A stretch of 64,000 bases of DNA, from the IMG/VR virus record IMGVR_UViG_3300003873_000003, positions 1 to 64,000 of that record; one strand, given 5' to 3'. A program made the position numbers and the translations under genes. Origin of the DNA: a virus. Below, piece by piece: positions 6,472 to 41,283 of the stretch. Under the pieces are notes generated by a model. It was not told the origin of the DNA. It saw only the letters and a program-made list of their open reading frames with translations, and searched no databases. The stretch's first letter is position 1. Every line of letters begins with the position of its first letter.

Positions 6472-8369
6472 AAGTTCAATAGTCTCCTGCGTACCGCTGC
6501 ATCCTTTCCAACTAGGTCAAGGAAGTAAGTTTCATCTTTCTTGGTCTTCGGGGGTAGTACCTTAATCCAGTGTCGTGTATCTTCATCGAACGCAAACGCA
6601 TTCAATGCGGAAGGGTTAACTTCACCCCACCCTTTGATTCGAGTGATGGCTACATTCGACCGTGATTTACACTTTCTTTGAACTTCCTCAATCGTATCAC
6701 CCCAAACCAACGGTTTAGATGTTGTACAGAACAAGGGACCTTTAATGAGGTACACATGACCATTTCGGATAAGGTCAGGGCAGAGCCGCCAAATAGCCGA
6801 CAACACAAGCAACTCGATATGGCAGCCATCCACATCCGCATCCATTAGGAGACCTAACTTACCGATACGCATTTTCTCTAGTGGGTGTTCAGCCTTGCCA
6901 TCAAACCCGATAGACTGGAAGATGTTTTTGACTTCCTCGGACTCCATCAACTTAGCCATTGTGTTCTTGTAAGCTGCTACAATCTTACCCTTCAATGGGA
7001 GTACCTCTTGGTAACGCTTGTCCACTGCGTTCTTCGCTGTACCACCAGCCGAGTCACCTTCCACCAAAATAAGCTCAACTTCGTTCGCAGGTGTCTTGGG
7101 GTTACTTTGATTAAGCTTCGCAGGCAGCTTGCCTTTGCGATTGTTGGTAAGACCTGCCAATGCTTTGCGGTTCGCATTGAAGCTGTCCCTGTTCTTCTTC
7201 AACGCTGATGCCTTATCTAGCATCCGTTTAGCCAGTGCCTTATTCTTCTTGAAATGTGCTATCAGTGCAGCTTGTATGTCATCACAAACGAGCTTACCCT
7301 CTGTGGAGGTAAGACGCTCTTTCGTCTGTGAGGAGAACTGGGGTTGTACCATATTGAAGTTTACGATACCCACCAACCCGAACAAAAGGTCGTCCGCTGT
7401 ATAGGCGTGCTTCTTCAATTTGAATGGGGCTAACGCCGTTGTTAAAGCTTTCTTGAAAGCGGTTAGGTGCGTACCACCTTCCAATGTCACCGAGGCGCAC
7501 ACATAAGTATCAAGCAGTACAGAAGCCCCGTTAGTCACAGCAAAGCTGACATCTGTTCTGCCTGTATTGATGTGAAAGACGCTCCCATCCATCGTAAGCT
7601 CTTCTTCTTCGATGATGTGCTTCACATAGTCCACCGTTCCATTCTTGTGTAGCATGGTCTCGGAGATACCTGTGTTAGTTGTTAGTTTGATTTCCATGCC
7701 TCCGTGTAGGTAGGCTAGAGTATCGAGGTAGGTCATCAAGTGAGATATGTTCAGTTTGCTTCCTTTTTGGAATAAGCTCGCATCACGTACAAACTTAACC
7801 ACCGTACCCCTACGGCTCTTCATCTGCTTGGGTAGCTTAGGTGCTGCGCATTTACGAACACCAGACCCGATGCCTTTCTTGGATGAATATGAGTACCAAG
7901 CACCTTTACGGAAGGTGTAGGCTACAAGCCTATCACACATAGCGGATGTCACCGCAGCCCCTACACCGTTACAGCCTGCGCTCCCTTCGGCATAGGCTTT
8001 GCCACTGAACTTACCACCACTGTGTAGCTCATTGAAGGCAGCCTCTAGGGGAGACTTACCGTCTAGCTTGGCAGACTTCTCAACAGGGATGCCCCCACCA
8101 CCATCTTGAACAAAGTATGTAACACCTTCGATGTGAACATGGATAAACTTGTTCCGCCCCGCAAGAAACTCATCGCTACTATTGTCGATAGGTTCTTTCA
8201 GGATTTGGAATAAGCCATGTGCATCATTCTCACCGATATACATACCACTTCGCCTACGGACGTTATCGGGGTAGTGCAGGGTTTCCCAATCATCTGCTTT
8301 TTGCTCTTTAGGCTTTCGTGTTCGCCTTGTAGACCCACGAAGTGCCACGCTGTTTGTCTTGGTACTCAT
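6468..8369 (-). CDS. gyrB: Type II DNA topoisomerase subunit B (GyrB/ParE-like)
   Basis: VRRRSGMYIG, EPIDNSSDE, DGGGGIP, LHSGGKF, EGDSAGG, PLKGK, DADVDG, RIKGWGE; ATGA overlap with subunit A. Confidence 0.95.
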   Translation of the reverse strand: MSTKTNSVALRGSTRRTRKPKEQKADDWETLHYPDNVRRRSGMYIGENDAHGLFQILKEPIDNSSDEFLAGRNKFIHVHIEGVTYFVQDGGGGIPVEKSAKLDGKSPLEAAFNELHSGGKFSGKAYAEGSAGCNGVGAAVTSAMCDRLVAYTFRKGAWYSYSSKKGIGSGVRKCAAPKLPKQMKSRRGTVVKFVRDASLFQKGSKLNISHLMTYLDTLAYLHGGMEIKLTTNTGISETMLHKNGTVDYVKHIIEEEELTMDGSVFHINTGRTDVSFAVTNGASVLLDTYVCASVTLEGGTHLTAFKKALTTALAPFKLKKHAYTADDLLFGLVGIVNFNMVQPQFSSQTKERLTSTEGKLVCDDIQAALIAHFKKNKALAKRMLDKASALKKNRDSFNANRKALAGLTNNRKGKLPAKLNQSNPKTPANEVELILVEGDSAGGTAKNAVDKRYQEVLPLKGKIVAAYKNTMAKLMESEEVKNIFQSIGFDGKAEHPLEKMRIGKLGLLMDADVDGCHIELLVLSAIWRLCPDLIRNGHVYLIKGPLFCTTSKPLVWGDTIEEVQRKCKSRSNVAITRIKGWGEVNPSALNAFAFDEDTRHWIKVLPPKTKKDETYFLDLVGKDAAVRRRLLNL

Positions 8370-8413
8370 ATCTGTTTAACTCCTATTGTCATAAAGGCTG
8401 TATAAAGCTTTCT

Positions 8414-8797: not shown

Positions 8798-8860
8798 GGT
8801 GTAACTCCTATTAGTTTATAGTTGGAACTTTCTCCAATGAAACCAATTAGGTAACCCAAA

Positions 8861-9631: not shown

Positions 9632-10451
9632 TTACATGTCCCACTCATCATCATCTTCATCTTCTTCGTCCCAGTCATCATCATCTTCATCATCACCATC
9701 TTCATCTTCTTCATCTTCTTCTTCGTCCCAGTCATCATCATCGTCATCTTCATCTTCATCTTCGTCCCAATCTTCATCATCTTCATCATCTTCATCGTCA
9801 TCAGCTTCTTCTTCGTCTTCTTCTTCGTCCCACTCTTCTTCCTCTTCTTCCTCTTCTTCAGGTTCGTCCCACTCTTCTTCTTCGTCTTCGGGTTCGGAAG
9901 CAGGTACATCAGGTGCGCCAGAATCATCGCTGACAAGAGTTACACAGTGTTGAGGTAAAGGTGTGACATCTTGAGTATTGCTTCCCACAGTCAAGCGCAA
10001 TGCGCCGCTCGGCAATAGTTCAACACTATCAGCACGCACGGATAGAAGTTGCATTTCAAGGTTGCACACCAATAAGGTCACAGAGCTTCCGTTGGACTCT
10101 TTACCAAGTAAGGACAAGATGTTCGAGCGTTGGAAAGTGTGAACATCAAACAATTTACTGCGGGGGCGTTTAACACGCAATGCGATAAAGTTCGCTGTTG
10201 ATTCAACAATAGTACCAACCAAAGATTCACAGCCTGCGCCAGTCACAGTCACAGTAGTGGCACCCAACATGCCTTCACTTGTTGATTGTTTCACAGGTGC
10301 TTTTTTCACTGGTGCTTTTTTAGCCGCTGTTTTCTTCACAGGTGCTTTTTTCACTGGTGCTTTTTTAGCCGCTGTTTTCTTCACAGGTGCTTTTTTCACT
10401 GGTGCTTTTTTAGCCGCTGTTTTTTTCCCGACGTTTTGTAGCTGTTGCCAT
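9632..10451 (-). CDS. Bipolar protein: histone-H1-like KKAPV repeats, globular core, hyper-acidic D/E/W tail (apparent +1 frameshift near start)
   Basis: AGGAG RBS and ATG at 10451 give MATATKRR; the KKTAAKKAPVKK frame is +1 across a G3A7 run (10420-10429); the C-terminal ~85 aa are almost only D/E with periodic W. Confidence 0.7.
10290..10424. repeat. 45-bp tandem repeat x3 encoding KKTAAKKAPVKKAPV
   Basis: ttcacaggtgcttttttcactggtgcttttttagccgctgtttt repeated three times. Confidence 0.9.
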
Positions 10452-10580
10452 GATATACTCCTAAGATATGAAGCTCGCTTGTGGTTGCGAGTCTTCTTTT
10501 GTTCTGTCACACATTTACAGTTTATAAAACTTAAAACGCTCATCATTTTAAGTTCATCAAATTAACATCAAATGAAAGCT

Positions 10581-14661: not shown

Positions 14662-15696
14662 TTATGTTCCAATGTGATTGGCGTATAGTGTATGTAGGCG
14701 AGGTGTGTATCTGAAATCCTTGAATAACCCCCAAGGGGTGCCTTCATAAACAAGCTCATTAACTCGGGACTGCATCGCAAGTGCTGTATCCATAGCGAGC
14801 ATGTTAGACGCATTATGCAGGTTATCACCCTCACCCATGAATAGGATAGGAGTACCAACAACCAACTTATGTTTTAGTTCAACTTCATTAAGGCTGCTCA
14901 ACGTCTGTAGGGGAGTGCTACTGTAACGTGCATGACACCACACTGATTCAACGTAGTTAAGCAGGATGTCATCGACCCAGTTTACGTTAAATGGAGGTTC
15001 GACATAGGAAGCATCCACCACAAACTTGATTTGCGCTTTACATCCTACAATGCACGCAGCGAATTGTGTAAGGATACCAACAGATAGTGGAGGTGTGTAC
15101 TCACCGCTTGTTGGCAGCTTAGGTGAAATGCTGAACAGGAATAGAGTATCAGAATCTGTGCAGCCCTTTGAGTCACAGATTTGTTTAATGATGTTACCTA
15201 GTTGGGTTGACAACACAATAGAGCCGTTAGTCTCTATTGTAACACGGCTGGGGTTCGCTACGGCAAAGATGGCAGTCAGAATACGTCCTAAGCCGTCTTG
15301 AGATAGCATAGGCTCACCTCCAGTTATAACAATGGGGGTTGTAGGCTTACCAATTCGGGAAGAGCTATCGAGTAACTTAGAGTACATATCAGCAAGCATT
15401 GTTGATATAGTCCCTACGGTAGTCAGGTGTCGGTAACGCTTATCCCACGAGTAGGGTGTATCGCAACCTGATTTAGTTGGTGGTACGTCAGCTAACGACT
15501 TGAGTGTAGCGGGGTCGTAGTCTAGCTCTTTAGACAGACCACACCCACCAAATTCAGGGCAGGTGAAGTTACACCCCCATAGCCGTAAGAACAAGGAAGG
15601 CTCACCTGCATAGATACCCTCACCCTGTATGGAGTAAAAGGTCTCCACATACCTAACTCGTGATTCACCTAGTTCGCCTAGCACTTCTATATCCAT
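14662..15696 (-). CDS. queE: 7-carboxy-7-deazaguanine synthase (radical SAM)
   Basis: ETFYSIQGEG, LFLRLWGCNFTC...CDTPYS, VITGGEP, IETNG, SISPKL, KFVV, PRLH. Confidence 0.9.
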   Translation of the reverse strand: MDIEVLGELGESRVRYVETFYSIQGEGIYAGEPSLFLRLWGCNFTCPEFGGCGLSKELDYDPATLKSLADVPPTKSGCDTPYSWDKRYRHLTTVGTISTMLADMYSKLLDSSSRIGKPTTPIVITGGEPMLSQDGLGRILTAIFAVANPSRVTIETNGSIVLSTQLGNIIKQICDSKGCTDSDTLFLFSISPKLPTSGEYTPPLSVGILTQFAACIVGCKAQIKFVVDASYVEPPFNVNWVDDILLNYVESVWCHARYSSTPLQTLSSLNEVELKHKLVVGTPILFMGEGDNLHNASNMLAMDTALAMQSRVNELVYEGTPWGLFKDFRYTPRLHTLYANHIGT

Positions 15697-15778: not shown

Positions 15779-16297
15779 TTATGCGTATTGGCGGAATAGC
15801 TTAGAAAATACAAGCTTCCAGTTCAGGGACTTGCTGTTACGTGAACTACCCTTAATGACTTCGGGCAGTGTTTGAACAACAACGTCAGCAGGTACATCGT
15901 GGCGTAGCAACTCTTTAGCACACTCCCAAACACGTTTAACGAAAGAACCGTGAACTGCATCTAAGTTTTTACAACCTAAGAACAGAACCCCACCTGATTG
16001 GTGGTCAAACAGGATGGCATCGTCAAAGGTAGTCTTAGCCATATCGCAGTCAATAAAGGTGCATCCGCAAATCTGCGCTACAGAGAAATCAACACCCACT
16101 AAGGTGCAATGCTCGAACGTAGCTCCCGCTAGGTTAGAGTGTGTGAAGTTTGAGTCGGTCAAATCCAAGTCTTTGAATCGAGTTTGACGCATACTCGAAC
16201 CTGAAAAGGATGTGTTAGGGACACCCATTTCAGTGGTGATGGTTTGATGGTTAAGGCTCAAACCTCCGTAATCGTGCATAGCTGCATTATCATTCAT
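15779..16297 (-). CDS. Pentapeptide repeat protein
   Basis: DLDLTDSNFTHSNLAGATFEHCTLVGVDFSVAQICGCTFIDCDM repeats. Confidence 0.85.
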   Translation of the reverse strand: MNDNAAMHDYGGLSLNHQTITTEMGVPNTSFSGSSMRQTRFKDLDLTDSNFTHSNLAGATFEHCTLVGVDFSVAQICGCTFIDCDMAKTTFDDAILFDHQSGGVLFLGCKNLDAVHGSFVKRVWECAKELLRHDVPADVVVQTLPEVIKGSSRNSKSLNWKLVFSKLFRQYA

Positions 16298-16316
16298 AGT
16301 CGTTCTCCTATTATCT

Positions 16317-16511
16317 TTAATATGCTTCTTGGCAAGGAACACATCGTACAGCGTTCGGCAAGATGCGCTTACGTTCAGCAGGGATTTCTACCCCACAATC
16401 GACACACTCGTCTGTGCCTACGCCTTCTGTGTTCTTTCGGCGAATCTCATCCAACTTAGCTTGTATTTGCAAGCTCATTGCGTCATTTGCTCTATCTACA
16501 TCATCAGCCAT
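16317..16511 (-). CDS. traR: TraR/DksA C4-type zinc finger protein
   Basis: MADDVDRAND; CVDCGVEIPAERKRILPNAVRCVPCQ. Confidence 0.9.
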   Translation of the reverse strand: MADDVDRANDAMSLQIQAKLDEIRRKNTEGVGTDECVDCGVEIPAERKRILPNAVRCVPCQEAY

Positions 16512-26207: not shown

Positions 26208-26864
26208 TTAAGATAAGGGCTTCCTGTCAAGTCGGTCTAGCATCCCATAGTATTCAGCTTTGCAGGATGCGTTATCTAAGAAGATACCCCTAACCTCGGT
26301 CGTGGCAGTATAGCTTGGTGACTCAACTCCTCGACATTCCATGCAGGAGTGACGTGCTACGATAGACACTGCGCTACCTTGAGAAGGTATTTGGGGGAAC
26401 CAGTTAGAGGAACCGTCACGATAGAACACATCAGCAATATCTTTACACAACTGCTCTTGCAATACAGGTCGCTTCGACAATGATTTAACGATGCGTGCAA
26501 TCTTGGATAGACCCAGAACCACACCGTCCTTAGAAGGCATGTAGGCAACAGACACGTCAAGGAACACAGGTAGCAAGTGGTGAGGGCATAGACCCGAAGC
26601 TCGTATAGGGCTTTGCAGAACAATACCGTTAGTGGTGGTGTTGGCTGCGAACTCCGTGGGGAACGCCGTTGAGCATATCGTAAGCAATTCGTTACGGATT
26701 GTTTCTTTGGTTAGGCACATCTCAGACATAGCCCGAGCGCATCTCATAGGCGTATCTTCGAGGTTGTCCATCTCCGCCCTAGATAAATCACCATCACGGT
26801 TGAAGTAATCAACAATAGTTTTGTAGGCAGTAACCAGCTTGGGGTCAACGTTTTTGTTTTTCAT
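26208..26864 (-). CDS. folE: GTP cyclohydrolase I
   Basis: DTPMR, CPHHLLP, LGLSKIAR, RPVLQE, HSCMECRG. Confidence 0.93.
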   Translation of the reverse strand: MKNKNVDPKLVTAYKTIVDYFNRDGDLSRAEMDNLEDTPMRCARAMSEMCLTKETIRNELLTICSTAFPTEFAANTTTNGIVLQSPIRASGLCPHHLLPVFLDVSVAYMPSKDGVVLGLSKIARIVKSLSKRPVLQEQLCKDIADVFYRDGSSNWFPQIPSQGSAVSIVARHSCMECRGVESPSYTATTEVRGIFLDNASCKAEYYGMLDRLDRKPLS

Positions 26865-29411: not shown

Positions 29412-32339
29412 TTAATCTACGTCAACGAAATTAGCTTCAACAATCCGTACTCGTGCTACCATCTTCGACAAAAGCGTATCCATCTTCATGTGGTAGTTTA
29501 CACTTTCGTCAGCCTCAAGCTGCTGGGCTACTTCCTGTAAACGCACTTTCCCAAAGATGCGGCTGTTATGTTGCACAGCGTTCAGCACAGCCTTCTTATT
29601 CGTGCAGCGAATCCCCATGCGTGTCTCTTGTTCTATCAGCGAAGAGCTAACCAGTGTAACAAGGGATTCAGGTACGAAGTCCCAACCTTTAACGTCACGT
29701 AGATTGTCACCAAACTCAAAGTCCATTTCCAAACCCACTGGCAACGGCGCATTGAACTCATCACGGCAAACACGATGCACTCCCGTCGTGTACGAGTGTT
29801 CCATTATGTATGCCATCACAGGGATAGCCCAGAACGGGCATTGTGAATAGACACTATCATGCACACTGTTACTGATTTGAATCTTCAAGTCGCACCCACT
29901 GGATGTCCACTTAAACACGTTAGTCTGGAACTCCCTCCCACCGATAAACCCTTGGTCAGAGGCAGTGCCTTGAATAGGTGAGTTCATCGACATACGGGCA
30001 TTAGCCGCTTGGATGCCTGTATCAGGGTGCAGGAAGCCGAACAAGTGACGCTTACGACCCAGAGGAGAACGTGCGTAAAGGTTCTTCTTAGCGAAAGCCT
30101 GTACTGCATCGAGCCATTTCTTAGAAGCGAAGAACTTACCAAAGAACTGCTTTAGGAGCTTCTTCGTTGCGGAAAGCGGCTGCCCGATATTGTCAGAAAG
30201 AGACTGAACACCCATACCATATAGAGTACCGAACGTAGTCACCTTAACGGCGTTCCTAGCCTCCTTGGTACAATCGTCAGGGTGGGTATTGTGGAAGAAC
30301 TGCACGTTTAGTTTATGCACGTCCCCGTACAACTCAATGGCTCGCTCGTTTTCGGGTGTCGGATTCAAGCGGTAGTTGAGCCTTGCAAACAAGCCTTTGG
30401 CAAACTGTTCCGCAAACACCTTGTCTTTAGCGATTAACGTGAAACCCCGAATCTCATGAGCAGAGTAATCGGCAGCACAAAACATATTCCCTTTCTCTGC
30501 TACGAACATCCGCTTAATCACCTTACCGAGTTCAGAGCGAGAAGGGATTTGGTGTAGAGAGGGGTCTTTAGCAGAAGCTCGTCCTGTCACCACATCGGTG
30601 AAGGAGAACTGTGGTCTGATACGGCTATCCAACCTAGCATCTGGGTCATCACGCAGTACATCGTAAAACTTGTTCACATAGCTACTACGAAGCTTCTCCG
30701 CCTTACCTAGTTCCTCAAGCCACCGCACCTCTTCCACCTTACTGCTGTAGTGAGACTTGAAAGCCTTATCAAGCTTACCACCACCCTTGGCATTACGACC
30801 CAGAGGCTCAAGTTTAAGTACACCAAAGAACAAGACTTGTTTGTGCGCATCCTTCCCGATGTCAAACACATGAGGAACAGAAGCACCAAACAGCCCATTG
30901 GAAGGAGCCCCCGACTTCTTAACGAGAAGAGCGTTAGCCTTTTTCACGTTATCAGATTTACGGAAGGAGTCCTTCATTTCCTTAATAATCTTGTTCACAG
31001 GTGATTCGGGTGTCTTCAAATAATGAACCCACTCTTTATCAACAGGCAATCCAAAGTATTCCATCACAGCAAAGCAATGGATAAGAGAGCCGATAACACG
31101 GGTCACAACAGGTATGTGGTCTTCGTCTGCCTGCTTCAACTGCTCATCATGGATAAGGCGGGGTGCGATAACATCCACACAAGCGTACTCGATTAAAGCA
31201 TCGTTAAGGTCGGTGGTTGCGATAGTCACACGGTCAGCCTTGCTGAATTGCAGGGTACTATAAATGTCACTGCCGTACTGGTTACACAAGGCGGCTAAAC
31301 TGTAAGCACTGTAACCAAAGGAAGTCAGGGCAGTCCTGTTCTCGTCCAAGGCGTACTCACCTGCGGTAGTACAGTAAACAGGGGCTTTATAATAACGAAC
31401 ACCTAGGTTCAGCACTTGCCCTGTATCGAACTTTGCATTGTGCATGATATGGTATTTATTATCATTGGTCTCCAAATAGTGGCAAATAGCTTTTCTAACC
31501 TTCTCTAGTTGCGTAGGAGTAAACGGCGTATCCTTGTGGTATAACGGAACGAAGTACGCAGTAGAGCCCAACCCAAACTGGATAGAGAATAGCGTGGAAG
31601 CTCGCCGATATAGACCCGAACCCTCTGTATCAATACAGACAATATCAGCCTTGCGTAACTTGGCAAGGAGTAACTTCACCTTGCGCATTGTATCAATGTA
31701 GATGTACTTATAGTCCCCTTTATCCAGCTTGATTTTAGGTGTCGTCCCGTTTATGCACCATGATACATGGCGTATCCACATACCGATAAGCTCACTGACC
31801 TTAACAGTCTCCTTGAACTTAGCTTCGACATCACCGTAAAGCGTACTGATGGATAGGGTACTCATCACATTATATTCTGTACGACCAATCTTCACAGGGC
31901 GTACTTGACCTAGGAACTTACGAGCTTCTTGGGGTGAACCACTAAGGGCAACGTTAGGTTCTAAGCCACAGGTGATGACCATATCAGGTTTAAGTTTTGA
32001 TACAATACGCTTCACACGACCCTGACACAGAGTATCAGCAATTTCTTTTAAGTCACCACTCAAGTCGTATGTCTTACACACATTGTAGGGGACAACATAG
32101 ACTGTGCAATCTTTCTTTATGTTATCTTTGACACGGTTCATCATGTTGAAGAACAGCTTACCTACAGAACCACTAAACAACTCTTTACGTCCCATATCCT
32201 CAGTTGGGATATGGTCAACGATAAACAGCACCTTGTAGTTTCCTTCACCTAAGTAAAAAGGTCGCACGGAAAAAGGGCTGCGGTTAAGCAGCCCCTTCAC
32301 CTGACCTTCCGCTTTATCGGGAAGGTTGAAATACCTCAA
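29412..32339 (-). CDS. polA: Family A DNA polymerase with N-terminal UDG-like domain and 3'-5' exonuclease
   Basis: Exo DTE, HNAKFD, YACVD; TGRASAKDPSLHQIP; motif A DYSAHEIR; motif B RNAVKVTTFGTLYG; motif C VHDS. Confidence 0.93.
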   Translation of the reverse strand: MRYFNLPDKAEGQVKGLLNRSPFSVRPFYLGEGNYKVLFIVDHIPTEDMGRKELFSGSVGKLFFNMMNRVKDNIKKDCTVYVVPYNVCKTYDLSGDLKEIADTLCQGRVKRIVSKLKPDMVITCGLEPNVALSGSPQEARKFLGQVRPVKIGRTEYNVMSTLSISTLYGDVEAKFKETVKVSELIGMWIRHVSWCINGTTPKIKLDKGDYKYIYIDTMRKVKLLLAKLRKADIVCIDTEGSGLYRRASTLFSIQFGLGSTAYFVPLYHKDTPFTPTQLEKVRKAICHYLETNDNKYHIMHNAKFDTGQVLNLGVRYYKAPVYCTTAGEYALDENRTALTSFGYSAYSLAALCNQYGSDIYSTLQFSKADRVTIATTDLNDALIEYACVDVIAPRLIHDEQLKQADEDHIPVVTRVIGSLIHCFAVMEYFGLPVDKEWVHYLKTPESPVNKIIKEMKDSFRKSDNVKKANALLVKKSGAPSNGLFGASVPHVFDIGKDAHKQVLFFGVLKLEPLGRNAKGGGKLDKAFKSHYSSKVEEVRWLEELGKAEKLRSSYVNKFYDVLRDDPDARLDSRIRPQFSFTDVVTGRASAKDPSLHQIPSRSELGKVIKRMFVAEKGNMFCAADYSAHEIRGFTLIAKDKVFAEQFAKGLFARLNYRLNPTPENERAIELYGDVHKLNVQFFHNTHPDDCTKEARNAVKVTTFGTLYGMGVQSLSDNIGQPLSATKKLLKQFFGKFFASKKWLDAVQAFAKKNLYARSPLGRKRHLFGFLHPDTGIQAANARMSMNSPIQGTASDQGFIGGREFQTNVFKWTSSGCDLKIQISNSVHDSVYSQCPFWAIPVMAYIMEHSYTTGVHRVCRDEFNAPLPVGLEMDFEFGDNLRDVKGWDFVPESLVTLVSSSLIEQETRMGIRCTNKKAVLNAVQHNSRIFGKVRLQEVAQQLEADESVNYHMKMDTLLSKMVARVRIVEANFVDVD

Positions 32340-33179: not shown

Positions 33180-33636
33180 CGGTATCCGCACGGGAGTGAC
33201 CCGATGAGTCCATAGCGGTAAATACGTTTAATTCACCACGCCGCACCCCCAGCGTGGCACTTAGGGAAGTTAATGTTGGTAGCCCCTGATACGTGGTAGC
33301 CCCTGATACAGTATCCACATGCAGACTTTCTTTTTCGTCTTCATTACCATGCGTGTCATGTTTAGGAATAGGTGTGCCGCATGAACGGAGGCGGTACACT
33401 TCATCAATACAGTTCAGCAATGAATCTTGGTATATCCGCAAAGACCTCCGCAACGACTCAAAGCTATGAATCAGAGCAGCGTCAGGGGCAAAGCCTGACT
33501 CGGATAGACTCTCGACATACCCATCTAAGTGAGCTAGGTAGTCCCAAGCCTCCGCCTGTTTCTCATACAGACTAGCCTTCATCTCTCCCCAGAATGCTCC
33601 ATCTATGGTTTCATTTGCGTGTGCATCATCAGTCAT
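33160..33636 (-). CDS. Hypothetical protein
   Basis: AAGGAG RBS, ATGA-coupled to the GNAT gene. Confidence 0.6.
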   Translation of the reverse strand: MTDDAHANETIDGAFWGEMKASLYEKQAEAWDYLAHLDGYVESLSESGFAPDAALIHSFESLRRSLRIYQDSLLNCIDEVYRLRSCGTPIPKHDTHGNEDEKESLHVDTVSGATTYQGLPTLTSLSATLGVRRGELNVFTAMDSSGHSRADTDGATDG

Positions 33637-34646
33637 AGTAACTCCTTATTGTTGGTAGGTGATGGTACTGAAAGTTGGGTTGTGAGCCCTGCACCTTTAT
33701 AGAAAGAGAAGCAAGGCTTGCTATAGAAACCCCAACTCTTCTTCCACCCATTATCGTAAGACAACGGCTCTATGCGTCTTCCTTCCGCTACAGCAAAGCA
33801 AGATTGTGTTATGTAACCATTAACAGATTTATGACGCTTATGTCGAGTCCCTGACATGAACATCGTAAGCGAGTGCTTATTGCCAATCAAGATAACAACG
33901 GCAGCAAGCTCGTTTGTGTGCCTATCTGTAACACACAAAGCGGAAACCTCGTAGGAGCAACCCTTATCAAGCAGAGCCGACACTAAAGCATCAACATCAG
34001 GGACTGCATACTGCTCGAACCTGTAAGCGTTATCACCAAAACGCTCTTTCTGCATTTCTTTAACTGCCTCAATGTGGTACAAGCTGATAGGGGAAACTTC
34101 ATAGTAATACTTCTTGTTTAACCGCTTCAAACTATTTCGGATACGCCCACGTTGTTTGTGGTTACACGCATACTGCAAGTGGGACTCCCAATCCATTTCC
34201 GAGTAGAAATGGTCAGACGAGTATTTCACAGTAACTGGTCCCGTATCCGTGTGTAGCACCATAGTGTCACCGACATTTGGCAGATTGAAGTTCGTATTCA
34301 AGAACGGTTGGTTATCAATCACCGAGCCGCTAGGAAGACTATCAGCAATAACACTCATCCAGTCCTTACTTGAGAAAGGGTGTGCAGCACTTGGGGTCAT
34401 AGAGGACAACGAAAAGTCGCTGTCAATCTCAACGTAGTTAGAATACTCACCATTGTAGCACCCATACCTGCAAAGAGGCAAGTAAACAACATCACTCACC
34501 ACTGCACATGGAGGTTCCGCAAGATGCTTATGCCAATGCTCCGTCCACTCTAGGGTGGCTTGCACAGACGGCTTCTCGATACAAGATACCCTCCTCTCCC
34601 TATCACGGATAAACTCGCTTCCAGTAATCATATCAGGCTGGGACAT
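33633..34646 (-). CDS. GNAT-fold (CelD/BcsL/FemAB-like) acyltransferase
   Basis: WESHL..KQRGRIRNSLKRL, ELAAVVIL, SYDNGWKKSWG pattern; AGGAG RBS before MSQPD. Confidence 0.6.
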   Translation of the reverse strand: MSQPDMITGSEFIRDRERRVSCIEKPSVQATLEWTEHWHKHLAEPPCAVVSDVVYLPLCRYGCYNGEYSNYVEIDSDFSLSSMTPSAAHPFSSKDWMSVIADSLPSGSVIDNQPFLNTNFNLPNVGDTMVLHTDTGPVTVKYSSDHFYSEMDWESHLQYACNHKQRGRIRNSLKRLNKKYYYEVSPISLYHIEAVKEMQKERFGDNAYRFEQYAVPDVDALVSALLDKGCSYEVSALCVTDRHTNELAAVVILIGNKHSLTMFMSGTRHKRHKSVNGYITQSCFAVAEGRRIEPLSYDNGWKKSWGFYSKPCFSFYKGAGLTTQLSVPSPTNNKELL

Positions 34647-35715
34647 GTCTGACCTCTCCTTCATAGTTAATAAGCGTATTAGTATCACCATCGGTTATAA
34701 TCACCCTAGCAGGCTCTAGGGGTATCTTGCCAATGCCACCTTCACCATCCACAACAAACGTAGGCATGGCAACACCGCTGATATACCCCCTAAGTTGGCA
34801 TACGAGTGTTTGTGCATCTTGCAGACTGACTTCAAACTGTGCGTTACCTAACTCACGGTCACAGGTGTACACGTAGTAAGGTCGAATACCGATAGACACA
34901 AGGTGCATAAACAGGGTCTCAAGGGTATGGGCGTTATCGTTGATGCCTTTCAACAGCACAGTCTGACTTCCTAGTGTTACCCCTGCGTCACGCAGATTGT
35001 TTACACCATCAACAAATATCGGTGTAATCTCTTTCGGATGGTTCACATGGATATTCAAAAGCACGTTATAATCACGCAGCAACTTACAGAATGCTGGGGT
35101 TAGTCGGTAAGGATTCTGTACAGGCATCCGTGAGCTGATACGAAGAATCTTGATGTGAGGTAGTGCCCGTATCTCTTTGAAGAGGTGTTCAAGAACGGTG
35201 TCGCTCATCAACAAGGGGTCTCCGCCTGACAGAAGCACATCATTTATTTCTGTATGCTTTTGCAGGTACTCAAGTGAAGCCATGAGTTGACCTTTCGATA
35301 TGTAATCATCCTCCCCAGATACCATACGTTTGCGAGTACAGAATCGGCAGTACGCAGCGCAAGTGTTCTGAACAAGGAAAAGGACACGCTTAGGGTAACG
35401 GTGGATAATGCTCGTACCTGCGATTCGATGACGTTCCTCATTGAGAGGGTCTTCCTGCTCAACATCAGACACATCTAGCTCTTTCTTCGAGTAGAGGTAC
35501 TGCTTACGGATAGGACAGTCGGGGTCATCAGGCGACATTAAACTTAGCAGATAAGGTGTTACACCTACCTTGAGTAACCCATGTGGGGGTACATCATCAG
35601 GCACATTCGATAAGTATATGCGCAATCCATCCATACTTCGCACACTACGCTTTATCTGACTGCGCCAACTAACGTCATCAAAGCACATAGGGTCTGTAGC
35701 CATCGTTTTACTCAT
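34633..35715 (-). CDS. kamA: Lysine 2,3-aminomutase (radical SAM, PLP)
   Basis: TPYLLSLM..DDP.CPIRKQ, HRYPKRVL, CAAYCRFCTRKR, LSGGDPL, HVNHPKE, QTVLLKGIND, PYYVYTCD, PTFVVD..GG.GK. Confidence 0.92.
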   Translation of the reverse strand: MSKTMATDPMCFDDVSWRSQIKRSVRSMDGLRIYLSNVPDDVPPHGLLKVGVTPYLLSLMSPDDPDCPIRKQYLYSKKELDVSDVEQEDPLNEERHRIAGTSIIHRYPKRVLFLVQNTCAAYCRFCTRKRMVSGEDDYISKGQLMASLEYLQKHTEINDVLLSGGDPLLMSDTVLEHLFKEIRALPHIKILRISSRMPVQNPYRLTPAFCKLLRDYNVLLNIHVNHPKEITPIFVDGVNNLRDAGVTLGSQTVLLKGINDNAHTLETLFMHLVSIGIRPYYVYTCDRELGNAQFEVSLQDAQTLVCQLRGYISGVAMPTFVVDGEGGIGKIPLEPARVIITDGDTNTLINYEGEVRHVPA

Positions 35716-36817
35716 GGGATGAACCTTGGATGAACAGCACCAGCTCATGTGGTTCGAGAACACCACCCCAAGCTTTAGAGAAAGAAGGTGAGATAGCTTC
35801 GGTCAAGTCCTCACCCACCATAGGTACGAACTCGGGGCGAGGTAAGCCTAGGTGAGCAGAGCGACCATCTTCGTGTGCATCATTATTCGTATCAGCGGCG
35901 AACCCCATGTGAACCATAGGAAACCCATCGTACAGAGCTTCGTGGTCACGCAAAGCACGTTGCATGGAAGATACGAGTTCCCCTGTAGTCCACGGTCGAA
36001 TCTTGACAGCCTCATCCAACTTAATGTCAGCTACAACACGAGTTTCACCGTCAGACTTAGAGTGGGACTCTTCCACAACGACATTCTTATGATAAAGCTC
36101 GATGCTGTTATTGAATAGGTTACGATGTGTGACAACTGTGTACGAAACATTCAGAGTAGAACTGGAGCGTACAATGCCATCAGCGATTAAATCCTTACCG
36201 ATGTCAGTATCTGTACTCAAAGGTGTCCAGCAGTCAGACTCGTACTTATCGTGGAAGGGTGTGTACACACCGAAAGGAACGATGTTAAACTGGGCATAAT
36301 AGTCATCACCGTGCTTAACAGCATTATTAAGCAGGTTGAGGAAAAAGTCATCCATTTCAGATTCGGTCTGCAAGGCATTCAAGCTGTAATAGTACCCCAA
36401 CACTAAGTTTGTGCCTTCGGGTATAGTACAGTGAGTGGCATCGGCTGTTTCTAACCCTGCACCGTTGTCATTCAGTTCGGTTATCGTATAAGAGCTTACA
36501 TCGACTGTGGGGGAGAAGTATCCAGTGAGTTTGGAATAGTAATCCTTCCCACCAAACAACTCAACAACGTTCGCAGAGGACAGGGACTCAATGAAGGGTT
36601 TGCCAAGCTCATAAGCAGTAGTTCGCTCAAAGTCAGCACTATGGGGGAACGTTATGCCTTCAAACTCACCGTTCAACACAGTACGCAATGTTTCTCGAAG
36701 AAGGAGAGTGTCGTACAAACGAGCATGTGGGTCAGGGGCAGTAACAGCCTCGTACACGGCGGCATGGTGGTAAAGAGATTTTGCATAGTAACATAACTTG
36801 CGGTCTTTTGATTTCAT
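35708..36817 (-). CDS. Class I SAM-dependent methyltransferase-like protein
   Basis: AAVYEAV, VVELFGG (motif I-like), DAT, LVLGYYYSLNALQTESEMDDFFLNL, KIRPWTTGEL. Confidence 0.55.
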   Translation of the reverse strand: MKSKDRKLCYYAKSLYHHAAVYEAVTAPDPHARLYDTLLLRETLRTVLNGEFEGITFPHSADFERTTAYELGKPFIESLSSANVVELFGGKDYYSKLTGYFSPTVDVSSYTITELNDNGAGLETADATHCTIPEGTNLVLGYYYSLNALQTESEMDDFFLNLLNNAVKHGDDYYAQFNIVPFGVYTPFHDKYESDCWTPLSTDTDIGKDLIADGIVRSSSTLNVSYTVVTHRNLFNNSIELYHKNVVVEESHSKSDGETRVVADIKLDEAVKIRPWTTGELVSSMQRALRDHEALYDGFPMVHMGFAADTNNDAHEDGRSAHLGLPRPEFVPMVGEDLTEAISPSFSKAWGGVLEPHELVLFIQGSSHE

Positions 36818-36900
36818 TATTTTGTAACTCCCAATATAGGATAAACAGTGGATGTAACGTAGGTCAATCGGCTACACCCACCATTTACAGTTTTGCACTC

Positions 36901-38568
36901 TTATGGCTTAGGGTTATGACCTGTAGCCCTATCCATAATACGCTCTAACATCTCACTATAGAACCCCTCAAATAAAGTACCGTTGTAAACACAGTCAGAA
37001 CAAGCAGGCTCGATGTATTCTTGGATGCGTGGGGAATTAGGTCGCATTTCAAACACTGTACTAAGAACGGCAACACGCCCACCATGCGAAAAGAACCCAT
37101 CTGATACAACATCATAGTACACGTCAATATACCGCATATCAACAGTGCCTTGCTGTAAGAACGCTCCAGTCGGTGTTCCTCTGCGTGTATCAGGGTAGTG
37201 AACTGCCTTGGGTGTGCGGAAACGGTCGGCAGCAAACGAAAGGTCGATAAGCGATAACCCAAAACTTTCAGGGTATAGCAGCGGTACTATCGTGTTGCGG
37301 GGGTCTGACCAAGAGTAAGTGTTCGGTGCGTTGTATGAATAGAAGTAGTCTAGGAACTCAAAAGGGCTTGGGTGTAAGATAAGACTGTCTTCTGTATCAG
37401 CACACTCCGAAGGCGCAGGCTCCATCTCACCAGCTTGCATTGCAATCGTTGCGAAGTTGCTATTCGCAAGTCGAGTCATCCACTCGATACCATAAGTAAT
37501 AGAATCATCGTGACCCATAATAAACGTCAAGTCTATGACCCCAGTGTATTCAGGTGCATTGTCAGCCAACCACGCACCTAACCGACCTGCAATTACCTCG
37601 GGGTACATGAACCGCTTGAGGCGTTCAGATGTAAGAGACACATGGTAAGTAGCAACATCACCAAACTTGGGACCGCAGCCGCCATACTGATTGTCATGGA
37701 ACAAACGATTATCCTCAATCACCAACACGCCATTCCCCACGTGACCTTGAGCAACAAAATAGGAAAGGCTGAACTCAATACCTTCGATAAAGTCTTGGAT
37801 GATGATGGGGTAAGGTAGACCCTTGCCGTTTTCGGGACGCAAAGTCAAAGCACCAATAGACTGACCACGAAGTTCCTTTACGTACACCTTTTTCGAGGTG
37901 TCATCAACGGCGGAGCATACACCGCACCAATCTTCCTCATCTTGAACCGTGACCGTTTTAGGTGTAGCGATACCGAGAGAACGGAACGCCGCATCGCCAA
38001 CACTACGAACTAACTCTAAGTCCCGTGCGGCTTTCGGTGTTCTGGGGAACAGGTTGTACGGCAAGGGTTTACCCTTCGCAACCTTGGAATTGGCTACGCC
38101 TTTATAGATGATGTCATCCAACCATTGATAGAACGGTTTAGTCTGCGCCTGCTGTGCAACTTGTTTGGAACGGGGCTTAGTACGACCACCTTTCGTTGCA
38201 CGGATGTCATCCATAGTTCTTGCGTGCTGGATACCACAGGCAGCAGGGTACACCACAGTCCCACTACCATTCTTCTCGGTAACAAAGTGATGTACGATAC
38301 GCAGCGTAGCTTCCAACGAAAAGGCGTACTCCGACCCACCAATGGAGTGAGGAATCAAGCAGGCAGTTGGATGGTCTGCAAAATAATCAGAGGCAGCGTC
38401 CCTGTTACCGATAACCAGTGTGTTAAACAAAGAAGGTTCAAAGGCTGTACTATCCCTCACCTGCTCCATAGACAAAGAAAAACGAGGTACAAGCAGATTG
38501 AAAGATTTGGTCTTGGGGTCACCGACCGTAATAACACGGTAGTCGTCAATAGAAAATTCGTCACTCAT
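36901..38568 (-). CDS. ATP-grasp amine ligase, PurD (GAR synthetase)-like
   Basis: LFPRTPKAARDLELVR..FRSLGIATP, VYVK, IIIQDFIEGIEFS, EDNRLF..GPKFGD, YTGVIDL, IEWMTRL, GGRV. Confidence 0.7.
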   Translation of the reverse strand: MSDEFSIDDYRVITVGDPKTKSFNLLVPRFSLSMEQVRDSTAFEPSLFNTLVIGNRDAASDYFADHPTACLIPHSIGGSEYAFSLEATLRIVHHFVTEKNGSGTVVYPAACGIQHARTMDDIRATKGGRTKPRSKQVAQQAQTKPFYQWLDDIIYKGVANSKVAKGKPLPYNLFPRTPKAARDLELVRSVGDAAFRSLGIATPKTVTVQDEEDWCGVCSAVDDTSKKVYVKELRGQSIGALTLRPENGKGLPYPIIIQDFIEGIEFSLSYFVAQGHVGNGVLVIEDNRLFHDNQYGGCGPKFGDVATYHVSLTSERLKRFMYPEVIAGRLGAWLADNAPEYTGVIDLTFIMGHDDSITYGIEWMTRLANSNFATIAMQAGEMEPAPSECADTEDSLILHPSPFEFLDYFYSYNAPNTYSWSDPRNTIVPLLYPESFGLSLIDLSFAADRFRTPKAVHYPDTRRGTPTGAFLQQGTVDMRYIDVYYDVVSDGFFSHGGRVAVLSTVFEMRPNSPRIQEYIEPACSDCVYNGTLFEGFYSEMLERIMDRATGHNPKP

Positions 38569-39278
38569 AGCTCAACTCCTAGTTCTTTGAAAAGTTCATC
38601 CACTTCGATACAAATGGGGCATTCATGGCAAGGTTCAGCATACTCGCAGCTTTGAGTACGCGCAAAGTCAATACCCATTGAAATGCCAAACTGAATAACC
38701 TCACGCTTCGTTAGGGACTCAAGCGGTGCTGTGACCAAGAAAGGCTCTGCGAAGGATGAAAAGATAGTGTCGTTCACCTGTGTATGGATTTGGCGGCAAG
38801 CATCCCGACCACGCATTAGGTTCAAGTCTGTGTTCATACCCAATTCAGATTGGTTGGATTGGAACCCCGTAGCTAAGCGGTTACAGCCGTTATAAGAGGC
38901 AACCGTGGCTGCCATGAGCATGAACAAAGGGTTGCGCCCATTAAGGAATCCCATCTCGGTGTCGGTCAGTACACAACAGTCATCACGATGGACACCTTTC
39001 TTTTGCAACTCGTAGTCTTCTTGGAAAGTAGGAACAGAGGTCAACTTACTGTAGTCCCAATCAATAACGTGCGTCTTAACTGTGCAACCGCAGTAATTTG
39101 ACAGGAAGTTTGCGTGCCAGTTCATATTGCGTTTCATGGTTTCAAAGTTCGCATTGCCTCCATTCACTAGGATTAACATGCCTAGTGAGCCAGCCTCTGC
39201 CAACATGTACGCAGCTACAGTGCTGTCGATACCTCCACTGTAAAGTACGGCTTGTTTCTTCTCAATCGGTTTTGTCAT
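38565..39278 (-). CDS. QueC-family PP-loop ATPase, divergent second copy
   Basis: LYSGGIDST, GRNPLF, DACR in place of YPDCR, TKREVI, SC...CHECPIC. Confidence 0.8.
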   Translation of the reverse strand: MTKPIEKKQAVLYSGGIDSTVAAYMLAEAGSLGMLILVNGGNANFETMKRNMNWHANFLSNYCGCTVKTHVIDWDYSKLTSVPTFQEDYELQKKGVHRDDCCVLTDTEMGFLNGRNPLFMLMAATVASYNGCNRLATGFQSNQSELGMNTDLNLMRGRDACRQIHTQVNDTIFSSFAEPFLVTAPLESLTKREVIQFGISMGIDFARTQSCEYAEPCHECPICIEVDELFKELGVEL

Positions 39279-39312
39279 AACATCTCCTTGTTTTGTAGTC
39301 ACAATTTACACT

Positions 39313-39993
39313 TTACCCATCTTCATACAGCGTAGGGTCAACAATGCCTGCCAACGAAAAGGCTAAACGGCGTTCCGTACAAGTACCGCACTTACCACAG
39401 TGGGTCACCCCACCTTTATAGCAACTGTATGTTTCTGCGAACGGTACACCCAAGCTTGCACCGATAGATACAATTTCGTTCTTAGTCAACCCACCGAAGG
39501 GGCTTACAACTTCAACACCACCGTATGTGCCTAATGAAGCAGCCTTACTCATAGCAGTTGTGAACTCGGTACGGCAATCGGGGTAGATGGCGTTGTCTCC
39601 TTTATGCGAGGCTAGGTAAACATGGTTAAGCTTACGGGCTTCTGCGATAGCTACAGCCACAGACAACATCACACCGTTACGGAAAGGAACCACAGTGCTA
39701 CGCATCGTAGCATCCTCGTAGTGACCTTCAGGGACGTCACCTGCACCCGAAATCAAGGAACTCAGCTCACCTAAGCTGCATTGGTTGAAGACGTTATGCA
39801 AAGGTATGACGAGGTGCTCCGTGTTAGTGATAGAGCAGTTACGAGAGGCACATTCGAGTTCTCGCTCATTGTGATTTGAACCGTAGTCGAACGACACCGC
39901 TAGAGCAGGCTTCATTTGGTACAACAGAGTGGTACTATCTAGACCCCCACTGTAGATTAAGATACCAGTATTTTCGAGAATGTTAGGTTTCAT
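39313..39993 (-). CDS. queC: 7-cyano-7-deazaguanine (preQ0) synthase
   Basis: YSGGLDSTT, FDYGS, STVVPFRN, YPDCR, TYSCY, HCGKCGTCTER. Confidence 0.95.
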   Translation of the reverse strand: MKPNILENTGILIYSGGLDSTTLLYQMKPALAVSFDYGSNHNERELECASRNCSITNTEHLVIPLHNVFNQCSLGELSSLISGAGDVPEGHYEDATMRSTVVPFRNGVMLSVAVAIAEARKLNHVYLASHKGDNAIYPDCRTEFTTAMSKAASLGTYGGVEVVSPFGGLTKNEIVSIGASLGVPFAETYSCYKGGVTHCGKCGTCTERRLAFSLAGIVDPTLYEDG

Positions 39994-41138
39994 TTTGAAT
40001 CTCCATTTGAATCATTTACTTTCAGAATACACCGCTTTAAGGAGTACAAACGGTCAGGGTCAAGCAGGTCAAGATAGTCAGGATAAAACTTCACAGGATT
40101 TACATATTGTACTTCGGGCTTATACCCATCAGGCAAGTCACGTAAGGCGGCTTCAATAGCTTGATTGTAATAGTCACAGTAAGAAACAATATGCACAGGT
40201 TTATGTTTGATGATATACTTCCTAACCTGCTGCATAGCACGCCAGTCATTAGGCACGCCACTATCGTACATAGGTGCTACACCCCAGAGGTCTTGAGGTA
40301 CGATACCTAGAACACCAGTAACGATAGCAATAGTCCAAGTATCAATCCAGTCCTCATCAGGGGCTTCACAAGAAGCGAGTGTATCCATGACGGCTTTGTG
40401 CATAGGGGAAGGGTACGGCTTATCCGCAGCACATGGAACGAGTAGCAGATTCGAGGTTGGATTTGAAGGGCTATAATCATCTAAGTCCTCCAAGTAGTCC
40501 AGTACAGTTGGTCGGTGGAACCCTCCGTTGTTAGTCACCACGAAAGACTTATCATGCAACCCTACACACCAATGAGGCTGAAAGCCTTGCACATCAAGCT
40601 TCCACAAGAAATCCGTAAGCTCTGGGCGCATAGAGGCAGACCACTCGACAGCCGAGCGTGTAACCTCCAAATCAGTGAAAGTCAACGCCACGTCCTCCTC
40701 AAATTCTACAGTAGGTAACTGCACTTCAACCCCCATGTAACGCAAAAGCATACACCAAGAAGAGGGAGGATACTTCGCAATGACTTTAGGTGCATCTTTT
40801 AAGTCGCCCGTACATTGGGTCGGTAAGAGAGGAGCGAGCGTAGAAACGTACCCATCCTCATCCATGTTAAAGTCCCGCCATGTAAAGTTTGGGTTGGCAA
40901 GCTGGAACAGCTTTTTGAACAACGTCATGTAGCCTTGATAGGTGTCCTCATACGACTCGCCTTTATTAGGCGCACTCAAGTAAATGGTGTAAGTCTCTTG
41001 TGGGTCTTCGTCAGACAGACCTAGTGTGTGGTTACAAGGGTAACCAAACAGCTCACCGTGGATACAGGGGACTCCACTGACCTTTACGTGTGAGCTAAGG
41101 TCTTCGGGTGTAGGTGACGGTAGTTCTTGTTCATCCAT
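39990..41138 (-). CDS. arcS: DUF5591 / archaeosine synthase (ArcS)-like protein
   Basis: LLVPCAADKPYPSPMH, IVTGVLGIVPQDL..PMYDSG match the ArcS core pattern PCxxxKPY...S.H...GxVPxE...YD; ATGA-coupled to queC. Confidence 0.75.
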   Translation of the reverse strand: MDEQELPSPTPEDLSSHVKVSGVPCIHGELFGYPCNHTLGLSDEDPQETYTIYLSAPNKGESYEDTYQGYMTLFKKLFQLANPNFTWRDFNMDEDGYVSTLAPLLPTQCTGDLKDAPKVIAKYPPSSWCMLLRYMGVEVQLPTVEFEEDVALTFTDLEVTRSAVEWSASMRPELTDFLWKLDVQGFQPHWCVGLHDKSFVVTNNGGFHRPTVLDYLEDLDDYSPSNPTSNLLLVPCAADKPYPSPMHKAVMDTLASCEAPDEDWIDTWTIAIVTGVLGIVPQDLWGVAPMYDSGVPNDWRAMQQVRKYIIKHKPVHIVSYCDYYNQAIEAALRDLPDGYKPEVQYVNPVKFYPDYLDLLDPDRLYSLKRCILKVNDSNGDSK

Positions 41139-41226: not shown

Positions 41227-41267
41227 AAAAAAAAGCCGCCCTACCCTCACTTGGGTAAGACGGCTTT
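41227..41267 (-). terminator. Rho-independent terminator
   Basis: aaagccgccctaccc...gggtaagacggcttt with A-run. Confidence 0.7.
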
Positions 41268-41283
41268 CTAAGAGGTAAGCTAC

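Follow-up and report, generated by a model that had tools for sequence, protein, structure and literature searches.

A phage gene cluster that may build an amino-acid-bearing 7-deazaguanine for DNA

Gene content of the cluster and the deazaguanine genes

We analyzed a stretch of 64,000 nucleotides (here, the window) that corresponds to positions 1 to 64,000 of the IMG/VR virus record IMGVR_UViG_3300003873_000003, which is 118,360 bp long in full and has a CheckV completeness of 45%. Within it, eight tightly packed genes on the minus strand, from 33160 to 41138, bring together relatives of the 7-deazaguanine genes arcS2 and queC, a second and divergent queC, a lysine aminomutase gene of the KamA family, and a gene for a PurD-like ATP-grasp ligase (Table 1). 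The co-oriented gene set described by an earlier reading of this DNA (the first-pass annotation) was thus borne out. Neighboring genes share ATGA-type overlaps of 4 nt at three junctions (39990-39993, 38565-38568, and 33633-33636), two further junctions would overlap with internal ATG starts (at ca. 35715 for KamA and ca. 34646 for the gene of 352 amino acids [aa]), and at the other two the genes are separated by 10 and 83 nt. Nearly all genes of the window lie on the minus strand, and the co-orientation of the cluster alone is therefore unremarkable; the feature above chance is the gene set, which recurs in other phages. The GC content is even across the window (0.45 to 0.48), and the intrinsic-terminator-like hairpin in front of the first gene is likely the upstream limit of the transcription unit. 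The family-A DNA polymerase of the record is ca. 35% identical to the polymerases of PaBG-like jumbo phages (250 to 270 kb). No tRNA genes were found in the 118-kb record.

Table 1. Features of the cluster and of its surroundings (window positions unless stated otherwise)
Feature	Position	Strand	Basis or remark
SNF2/helicase protein, 1627 aa	41740..46623		upstream of cluster
Intrinsic-terminator-like hairpin, 17-bp stem and T run	41230..41269	-	between upstream gene and ArcS2-like start
ArcS2-like, 382 aa	39990..41138	-	Pfam DUF5591
Canonical QueC, 226 aa	39313..39993	-	Pfam QueC, TIGR00364
Divergent QueC paralog, 245 aa	38565..39302	-	Pfam QueC
PurD-like ATP-grasp ligase, 555 aa	36901..38568	-	family profile against PDB
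Tentative class-I S-adenosylmethionine (SAM) methyltransferase fold, 369 aa	35708..36817	-	ESM Atlas only
KamA-family radical SAM/pyridoxal phosphate (PLP) aminomutase	34633..35766	-	TIGR00238; probable true start ATG near 35715
Tentative FemAB/Acetyltransf_6-like double-GNAT, 352 aa	33633..34691	-	ESM Atlas only; probably 337 aa from ATG 34646
Acidic orphan open reading frame (ORF), 158 aa	33160..33636	-	start overlaps the 352-aa gene by 4 nt
DNA polymerase A	29412..32339		downstream of cluster
FolE (GTP cyclohydrolase I)	26208..26864	-	Pfam 120.6 bits; phrog_2197; first deazaguanine step
Pentapeptide-repeat protein	15779..16342		between QueE-like gene and NAD-dependent DNA ligase
QueE-like radical SAM, 344 aa (long form)	14662..15696	-	phrog_2076, E 5.8e-35
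Lysine-rich protein	9632..10546		weak histone-H1-like (HC2) match
Topoisomerase II subunits	5032..8369		
Candidate DpdA, 549 aa	75566..77215 of the record		PF01702; outside the window

The genes for the base itself agree with known deazaguanine pathways. Pfam, PHROGs, and NCBIfam confirmed the FolE and QueE genes named by the first-pass annotation, together with the position of the cluster near the DNA polymerase. The QueE-like protein is expected to be the 7-carboxy-7-deazaguanine (CDG) synthase; its NCBIfam QueE matches (E values of 3.7e-12 to 2.3e-8) fall mainly on the N-terminal ca. 30 residues (best stretches, 15 to 47), and a Pfam search at 0.001 gave no match. The canonical QueC (Pfam, 176 bits; TIGR00364, 162.1 bits, above the cutoff of 150.3) aligns with PDB entry 3bl5 (E value of 1.9e-14), including the PP-loop SGGxDS and the C-terminal Cys cluster, and is expected to be the preQ0 synthase. 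In the ArcS2-like protein, DUF5591 (PF17884; 34.2 bits versus a cutoff of 26) is the sole domain present, as the core only, and neither a tRNA-guanine transglycosylase (TGT) N-terminal domain nor a PUA domain was found by Pfam, with which the genome-wide scan agrees. Its NCBIfam ArcS score (45.3 bits) is far under the cutoff of 440, and it is 36.6% identical to its homologue in the Vibrio phage vB_VcorM_GR11A (GR11A). The C1 motif of ArcS2 is quoted, in the available text of Cui et al. (2023), as PC-X3-KPY-X2-S-X2-H. At residues 235 to 247, the window protein reads PCAADKPYPSPMH, with PC-X3-KPY exact and the Ser and His one residue early, while GR11A has Ala where Ser is expected.

Given that no DpdA or QueD had been seen in the window, the first-pass annotation had pointed to the rest of the genome for both, and a candidate for the former was found there, whereas the 118-kb record yielded no queD. 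The candidate DpdA is a TGT-superfamily protein that came to light in an ORF-by-ORF Pfam scan (PF01702, 29.6 bits versus a cutoff of 26.3), after a genome-wide quick search with PF01702 had missed it. It carries DSGGFQ, the catalytic Asp motif of the TGT superfamily, and a CxCxxC...H zinc motif, both invariant in all three sequences aligned. Its best solved relative is the archaeal TGT 1iq8 (E value of 7.6e-8), proteins 33 to 35% identical to it are encoded by GR11A and by the Pseudomonas putida phage vB_PpuM-Lauda (Lauda), and a PHROGs search with it gave no match. Among 25 IMG/VR loci that contain relatives of this protein, FolE lies within 10 kb in 14, and at least one of FolE, QueE, and QueC in 18. 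Together, these features make the 549-aa protein a credible DpdA.

Several details of these transglycosylase-like genes are worth recording. The candidate is unusually long, with a C-terminal extension of ca. 180 aa; its relatives in the 25 loci have 430 to 580 aa and often directly follow FolE. The match in Lauda (W02:80610-82238) crosses one TAA stop, so the gene may be split or shorter, or the search may have carried the match past its end. Two related viral contigs have three tandem DpdA-like genes (398, 378, and 385 aa) beside FolE and QueC (L039:9401-12900 and L040:9752-13250), and another contig (L043) has two in tandem.

Aminomutase, divergent QueC, and ligase, and their recurrence in other phages

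The KamA protein scores 279.9 bits with TIGR00238 (family cutoff, 199.2) and matches the lysine 2,3-aminomutase of Clostridium (2a5h) with an E value of 9.6e-83 over 342 residues. The iron-sulfur cysteines C136, C140, and C143 (CxxxCxxC) and the PLP-binding K347 align to C125, C129, C132, and K337 of 2a5h, and R145, D303, and D340 correspond to R134, D293, and D330, with no change at any of these positions in the homologues from GR11A and Lauda (three of three phage sequences aligned). We take the Arg to bind the lysine carboxylate and the two Asp the epsilon-amine, as in the lysine 2,3-aminomutase structure. With the residues for binding free L-lysine kept, the reaction proposed by the first-pass annotation, free L-lysine to beta-lysine, is most likely the one catalyzed; with the EpmB equivalog model the protein scores 229, below the cutoff of 369. 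A role as a substitute for RaSEA was considered and rejected, since the protein retains the PLP lysine as well as the pocket for free lysine, and since KamA is found without ArcS2.

The second QueC scores above the cutoff of the broad Pfam family (64 versus 22 bits) but remains far from the TIGR00364 equivalog cutoff (42.3 versus 150.3 bits). It matches 3bl5 with an E value of 7e-4, retains both the SGGxDST PP-loop and the Cys cluster near its C terminus, and is 37% identical to a 233-aa QueC of GR11A; a word-based homologue search returned only itself. We propose that this paralog may act as an amide synthetase whose amine substrate is not ammonia.

The 555-aa ligase is hard to recognize from a single sequence. 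Alone, it matched nothing in Pfam, PHROGs, or NCBIfam, a word-based homologue search found nothing, and a full HMMER scan of 1.84 billion representatives yielded only three nonself relatives. The four sequences share a core of ca. 200 residues (window protein, residues ca. 179 to 380) with E285-x-N287 and a GxKxG stretch, and a profile built from them matched eight PurD entries of PDB (E values from 4.4e-13, for 5vev, to 0.002). Along similar lines, the homologue in the uncultured IMG/VR contig G001 matches GARS_A (31.5 bits versus a cutoff of 27), and two relatives match the purD model TIGR00877 (E values of 4.2e-11 and 2.4e-7; 42.3 and 29.9 bits versus a cutoff of 288). For the N- and C-terminal parts no family was recognized, and an AlphaFold2 model from the four-row alignment had a pLDDT of 30.9 and no usable fold. 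By these profiles, the protein belongs to the PurD-like ATP-grasp ligases, with foreign sequence at both ends. A true PurD acting as an auxiliary metabolic gene was rejected, the scores being far under the cutoff and the flanking domains missing.

Two other genes of the cluster could be named only tentatively, from look-alikes in the ESM Atlas. The 369-aa protein may have a class-I methyltransferase fold: its feature score was 0.90, a level also reached by 4 to 10% of shuffled proteins, and the template modeling (TM) scores were 0.50 to 0.54 by query and 0.67 to 0.77 by target, from a model with a pLDDT of 0.54. Pfam, NCBIfam, PHROGs, and PDB searches, methyltransferase profiles included, gave no match, no relative turned up in phages, and a reading of SAM motifs (ELFGGKD; ADATHC..P) was made by eye only. 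The 352-aa protein is, again tentatively, a FemAB-like double-GNAT and not a small acetyltransferase (feature score of 0.95; TM scores of 0.63 to 0.70 by query to Acetyltransf_6/FemAB clusters). It had no match in Pfam (PF13480, PF02388, and PF04339) or PDB, a word-based search retrieved one relative (77% identical, on a 2.6-kb contig), and AlphaFold2 with two rows gave a pLDDT of 36.6 and no usable fold. Thus, of the family calls made by the first-pass annotation, those for the ArcS-like protein, both QueCs, the ATP-grasp protein, and KamA held, while its SAM methyltransferase and GNAT are tentative; the likeness to FemAB would suggest amino-acid transfer over acetylation. In GR11A, a 351-aa protein has a weak C-terminal match to PF13480 (Acetyltransf_6; E value of 0.019). 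The 158-aa ORF that ends the cluster matched no family in Pfam, PHROGs, or NCBIfam.

We searched phage records for related clusters. A megablast search with the whole cluster gave no match, while tblastn against 50,697 records matched 20 with KamA and 8 with the ligase, all of the latter among the 20. A combination of KamA and the PurD-like ligase with a pair of QueC paralogs was present in all four lineages examined, namely, the present record, GR11A, the vB_PpuM phages of P. putida (represented by Lauda), and G001, the last of which is 209,566 bp long and 93% complete. In GR11A, the order is ArcS2-like, QueC, QueC, proteins of 351 and 365 aa, ligase (686 aa), KamA, and a small GNAT. Lauda has two QueC-like genes, proteins of 329, 333, and 350 aa, ligase (694 aa), proteins of 387, 315, and 305 aa, and KamA. 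G001 has, in a run from FolE to KamA of less than 11 kb, FolE, a homing-endonuclease-like gene, a DpdA-like gene, QueC, a 318-aa protein, QueC, a 336-aa protein, ligase (469 aa), proteins of 303 and 392 aa, and KamA. In three other lineages, kamA and the ATP-grasp gene thus accompany que genes, and both this linkage and the DpdA candidate, the two points in the genomes on which the first-pass annotation could have been refuted, turned out in its favor; relatives of the methyltransferase-like and FemAB-like proteins were not detected there. Scans of IMG/VR that used the ligase or KamA as a single sequence gave no match, and the ligase profile gave none in IMG/VR or metagenome contigs.

The accessory proteins between these core genes differ from lineage to lineage. 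Those of the other lineages remained unnamed by Pfam (E values up to 10) and NCBIfam, profile-profile comparison of the 300- to 390-aa proteins (A3, A4, and A5) gave no significant relation, and their profiles matched nothing in PDB or gave spurious prion matches. A family of 300 to 336 aa with no known match has three paralogs among the QueC and ligase genes of G001 (L012:3664-4620, 5473-6483, and 7905-8816) and occurs once in Lauda (L005:1590-2579), with FGEKS and C-terminal NYKD motifs in common. In G001, moreover, the homing-endonuclease-like gene (L012:439-1545) separates FolE from DpdA, and KamA is followed by an ORF that contains an intein (L012:11120-12535); judging from these two genes, mobile elements have invaded its modification cluster.

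The distribution of the ArcS2-like gene is different. DUF5591 is present in two of the four KamA lineages and absent from Lauda and G001. Conversely, neither KamA nor the ligase was found at any of 16 metagenome loci that have ArcS2-like genes (nine of these hold at least 10 kb), and 12 of the 16 have a single QueC of the canonical type, with FolE, QueE, and DpdA-like genes. No KamA was found in nine other whole viral records with a DpdA-like gene, four of which are at least 90% complete. Since KamA and the ligase are absent from the 16 ArcS2 loci and ArcS2 is found in only two of the four KamA lineages, the beta-lysine module looks like a rare add-on; and since the QueC that accompanies ArcS2 without KamA is canonical and mostly one per locus, the second QueC belongs with the KamA module. 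ArcS2 with one QueC is a common module, presumably of the dG+ type.

Proposed pathway and its alternatives

We propose, at what we consider an even chance, that the cluster combines an ordinary deazaguanine module with a rare add-on that would produce an amino-acid-bearing deazaguanine by means of the second QueC. In the ordinary module, FolE, QueE, the canonical QueC, and ArcS2 would lead to preQ0 and archaeosine-type bases, and the DpdA-like transglycosylase would insert the base into DNA. KamA would convert L-lysine into beta-lysine, and the divergent QueC would adenylate CDG and couple to it an amine of beta-lysine instead of ammonia, as RoyL does with lysine. The PurD-like ligase would then add a further amide bond to the side chain, and a lineage-specific decoration would follow, carried out here by the methyltransferase-fold and FemAB-like proteins. 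Virion DNA would then contain a 7-deazaguanine made bulky and charged by a beta-lysyl or peptidyl group, and this base would block the nucleases of the host. The sequences show the gene content, the family memberships, the retained active-site residues, and the shared synteny; from these we infer the substrates, the order of the steps, the stage of tailoring (free base or DNA), and the final structure.

According to the available text of a preprint (bioRxiv 10.64898/2026.04.15.718813), divergent QueCs of the RoyL type join adenylated CDG with lysine, ornithine, or diaminobutyrate, the residues of the amine pocket in RoyL being Tyr41, His45, and Glu48, and ATP-grasp enzymes and SAM methyltransferases are encoded in the same clusters. 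Because of RoyL, the second QueC is the best candidate for the attachment of beta-lysine. Similarly, the family match of the ligase to PurD, which joins an amino-acid carboxylate to an amine, supports an amide-forming role. Extended to all lineages, the proposal would be that these jumbo phages (the present record, GR11A, GR7B, the vB_PpuM group, and the uncultured 210-kb phage) replace guanine with a beta-lysine-bearing 7-deazaguanine, possibly extended to a short peptide and built by the QueC paralog as amide synthetase and by the PurD-like ligase, joined in some lineages by Fem-like transferases that depend on aminoacyl-tRNA, with a variant in each lineage made by tailoring enzymes of its own. 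We put the chance of this broader claim slightly below even.

Archaeal ArcS transfers lysine to preQ0 on tRNA, where lysine serves as a sacrificial nitrogen donor, and two alternatives build on this chemistry. In one, ArcS2 would place beta-lysine or lysine on the nitrile of preQ0 in DNA, and without RaSEA the adduct would stay as an N-substituted archaeosine to be tailored later. The ArcS2-like gene is indeed the first of the unit and keeps PC-X3-KPY, and GR11A shares an arrangement that runs from ArcS2 through two QueCs to KamA. Furthermore, the yield reported by Cui et al. (2023), as far as their text was available, for ArcS2 and DpdA2 of phage nt-1 was 4 to 7 dG+ versus 926 to 1,607 dPreQ0 per million nucleotides, so that another native product or cosubstrate is conceivable. 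Nevertheless, Lauda and the 93%-complete G001 have KamA, the ligase, and two QueCs but no DUF5591, and the ArcS2-like metagenome loci lack both KamA and the ligase, which makes ArcS, the first of the candidates named by the first-pass annotation for the beta-lysine step, a doubtful one and this amidine route quite unlikely. In the other, which we regard as very unlikely, beta-lysine would be a transient nitrogen donor to preQ0 or CDG, with its skeleton eliminated after the ligase has activated the carboxylate, and the base would be one of those described before (dG+ or dADG). On chemical grounds only, a beta-amino acid adduct could eliminate without a RaSEA-type enzyme, and phages are known to make dG+ with dedicated nitrogen donors such as Gat-QueC (Cui et al. 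2023, in the parts available). Such a donor would, however, leave the FemAB-like, methyltransferase-like, and other lineage-specific proteins of 300 to 390 aa roleless, the loci with ArcS2 and one QueC manage without KamA and hence need no donor system, and literature searches gave no enzyme precedent.

Other alternatives separate the module from DNA. KamA and the ligase might have nothing to do with the deazaguanine and instead make a beta-lysine small molecule or osmolyte, or modify a protein or another base, their place among early nucleotide-metabolism genes being incidental. KamA homologues with no que genes within 10 to 12 kb do exist (L013/L014, L015, and L016), and those in huge phages indicate that phages use KamA for something else too; in GR11A, a small GNAT follows KamA and recalls the AblA/AblB pair for N-acetyl-beta-lysine; and phage genes are dense and co-oriented in any case. 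Against this stands the adjacency of KamA, the ligase, and two QueCs in all four lineages despite identities of 25 to 50% and a rearranged order, with dpdA and folE inside the cluster in G001, and Pfam scans of the record revealed no partner genes of thymidine hypermodification or of the EF-P type; we consider this separation unlikely. Highly improbable, in our view, is a free peptidyl-deazapurine metabolite like roseomycin, acting as an inhibitor or a signal in the infected cell. The logic of a QueC homologue with an ATP-grasp enzyme and a methyltransferase is that of the Streptomyces clusters, which, as the available part of their description has it, lack DpdA; all four phage lineages, in contrast, have a DpdA-like protein, contiguous with the module in G001, and DpdA is the signature of DNA deazaguanine in what was available of Cui et al.

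Besides the KamA homologues without que neighbors, several observations weigh against a beta-lysyl deazaguanine made by the second QueC. The best equivalog model for KamA, AblA (TIGR03820), gives 332.4 bits, under its cutoff of 525.4, and the models for arginine (300) and glutamate (291) aminomutases come close to that score. In a tree of QueC paralogs (13 rows) with long branches and little resolution, the divergent QueCs of the four lineages do not group as one clade, and two loci (L030/L031) have two QueCs without KamA. Neither Pfam scans nor homologue searches of the 118-kb record revealed a QueD; it may sit in the missing half of the genome or come from the host. Finally, the methyltransferase-like and FemAB-like names come from one language-model and structure look-alike source, and neither protein has detectable relatives in the other three lineages, so that methylation and acylation, put forward by the first-pass annotation, can hardly be conserved steps.

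Known systems and other observations

In order to put the cluster into perspective, we compared it with systems already described. Eight natural 7-deazaguanine DNA bases (dPreQ0, dADG, dG+, dPreQ1, mdPreQ1, fdPreQ1, dDG, and dCDG) are given in the text available of Cui et al. (2023), none of them bearing an amino acid, and nt-1 ArcS2 with DpdA2 produced dG+ in Escherichia coli. The phage systems of that study and of Hutinet (2019), which comprise DpdA1 to DpdA4, FolE/QueD/QueE/QueC, ArcS2, Gat-QueC, QueF, and DpdL/M/N, have in common with the present record FolE, QueE, QueC, an ArcS2-type DUF5591 protein, and a TGT-superfamily protein. In contrast, the described pathways have no KamA, PurD-like ligase, or FemAB-like protein, all three of which are in the record (the FemAB-like one tentatively). 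The peptidyl-7-deazapurine clusters of Streptomyces (roseomycin A, RoyL), to which the record is likened by description only and as far as the source was available, share with it a divergent QueC, an ATP-grasp enzyme, a methyltransferase-type protein, and probably a basic amino acid, but they make free metabolites, are defined by the absence of DpdA, and use L-lysine, ornithine, or diaminobutyrate and not a KamA product.

Similar comparisons hold for single enzymes. With archaeal ArcS-RaSEA, the record shares the DUF5591 core, PC-X3-KPY, a radical SAM gene in the unit, and lysine as the likely input; it differs in that no TGT-like N-terminal or PUA domain was found, the radical SAM protein is the PLP-dependent KamA and not RaSEA, and the target would be DNA and not tRNA. 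Compared with the lysine 2,3-aminomutase pairs (KamA, AblA/AblB, and EpmB/EpmA), the KamA of the record keeps all lysine-binding residues, and GR11A has the adjoining small GNAT, but the record has no partner of the AblB or EpmA type and the genomic partners are que genes. The ligase shares with PurD the ATP-grasp A and B domains, including the E-x-N metal motif, while no GARS_N or GARS_C was found in it and its N- and C-terminal regions are unrelated and of 180 to 350 aa.

Literature searches that combined deazaguanine and phage with aminomutase, beta-lysine, or ATP-grasp, or DpdA with lysine and radical SAM, or that addressed the related cultured phages, returned no description of such a base or module (the supplements of Cui 2023 were covered in part), and the available part of the paper on the P. 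putida phages does not mention DNA modification. As far as sequence comparison reaches, the gene module is well supported, while its chemistry is unproven. If the proposal holds, natural DNA would be seen for the first time to contain a purine conjugated to an amino acid or a peptide, and the modification of phage DNA would be connected with the peptidyl-deazapurines that Streptomyces makes as natural products. On the major-groove face of guanine, a side chain of the lysine type would amount to new DNA chemistry: cationic, bulky, reactive, and probably able to defeat many of the nucleases of restriction and CRISPR systems. New enzymes for the site-specific derivatization of DNA would be gained as well, namely, an amide synthetase of the QueC type, a PurD-like ligase, and possibly transferases that depend on tRNA and act on DNA. 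Relatives that carry the core module can be cultured (hosts, Vibrio coralliilyticus RE98 and P. putida KT2440), and the question is therefore directly testable.

Some minor observations concern relatives and neighbors of the cluster. The sole QueD-like gene of GR11A (177.8 kb; L006:1492-2550) encodes 352 aa with two PTPS-like halves and is distant from the que cluster; a homologue of this protein was looked for in the 118-kb record and none was found. KamA homologues 36 to 42% identical to that of the record are present in huge uncultured phages (L015:11980-13128 and L016:11974-13014, in records of 462 and 735 kb). Downstream of the cluster, a 75-aa ORF and an AAA/SMC-type ATPase precede DNA polymerase A, and upstream, a 143-aa ORF and a strong terminator intervene between the cluster and the SNF2/helicase protein. 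The pentapeptide-repeat protein is reminiscent of the gyrase-protecting kind, and the same phage encodes topoisomerase II subunits. Lysine-rich proteins with weak histone-H1-like (HC2) matches, one in the window and one at L002:7612-8442, may coat DNA.

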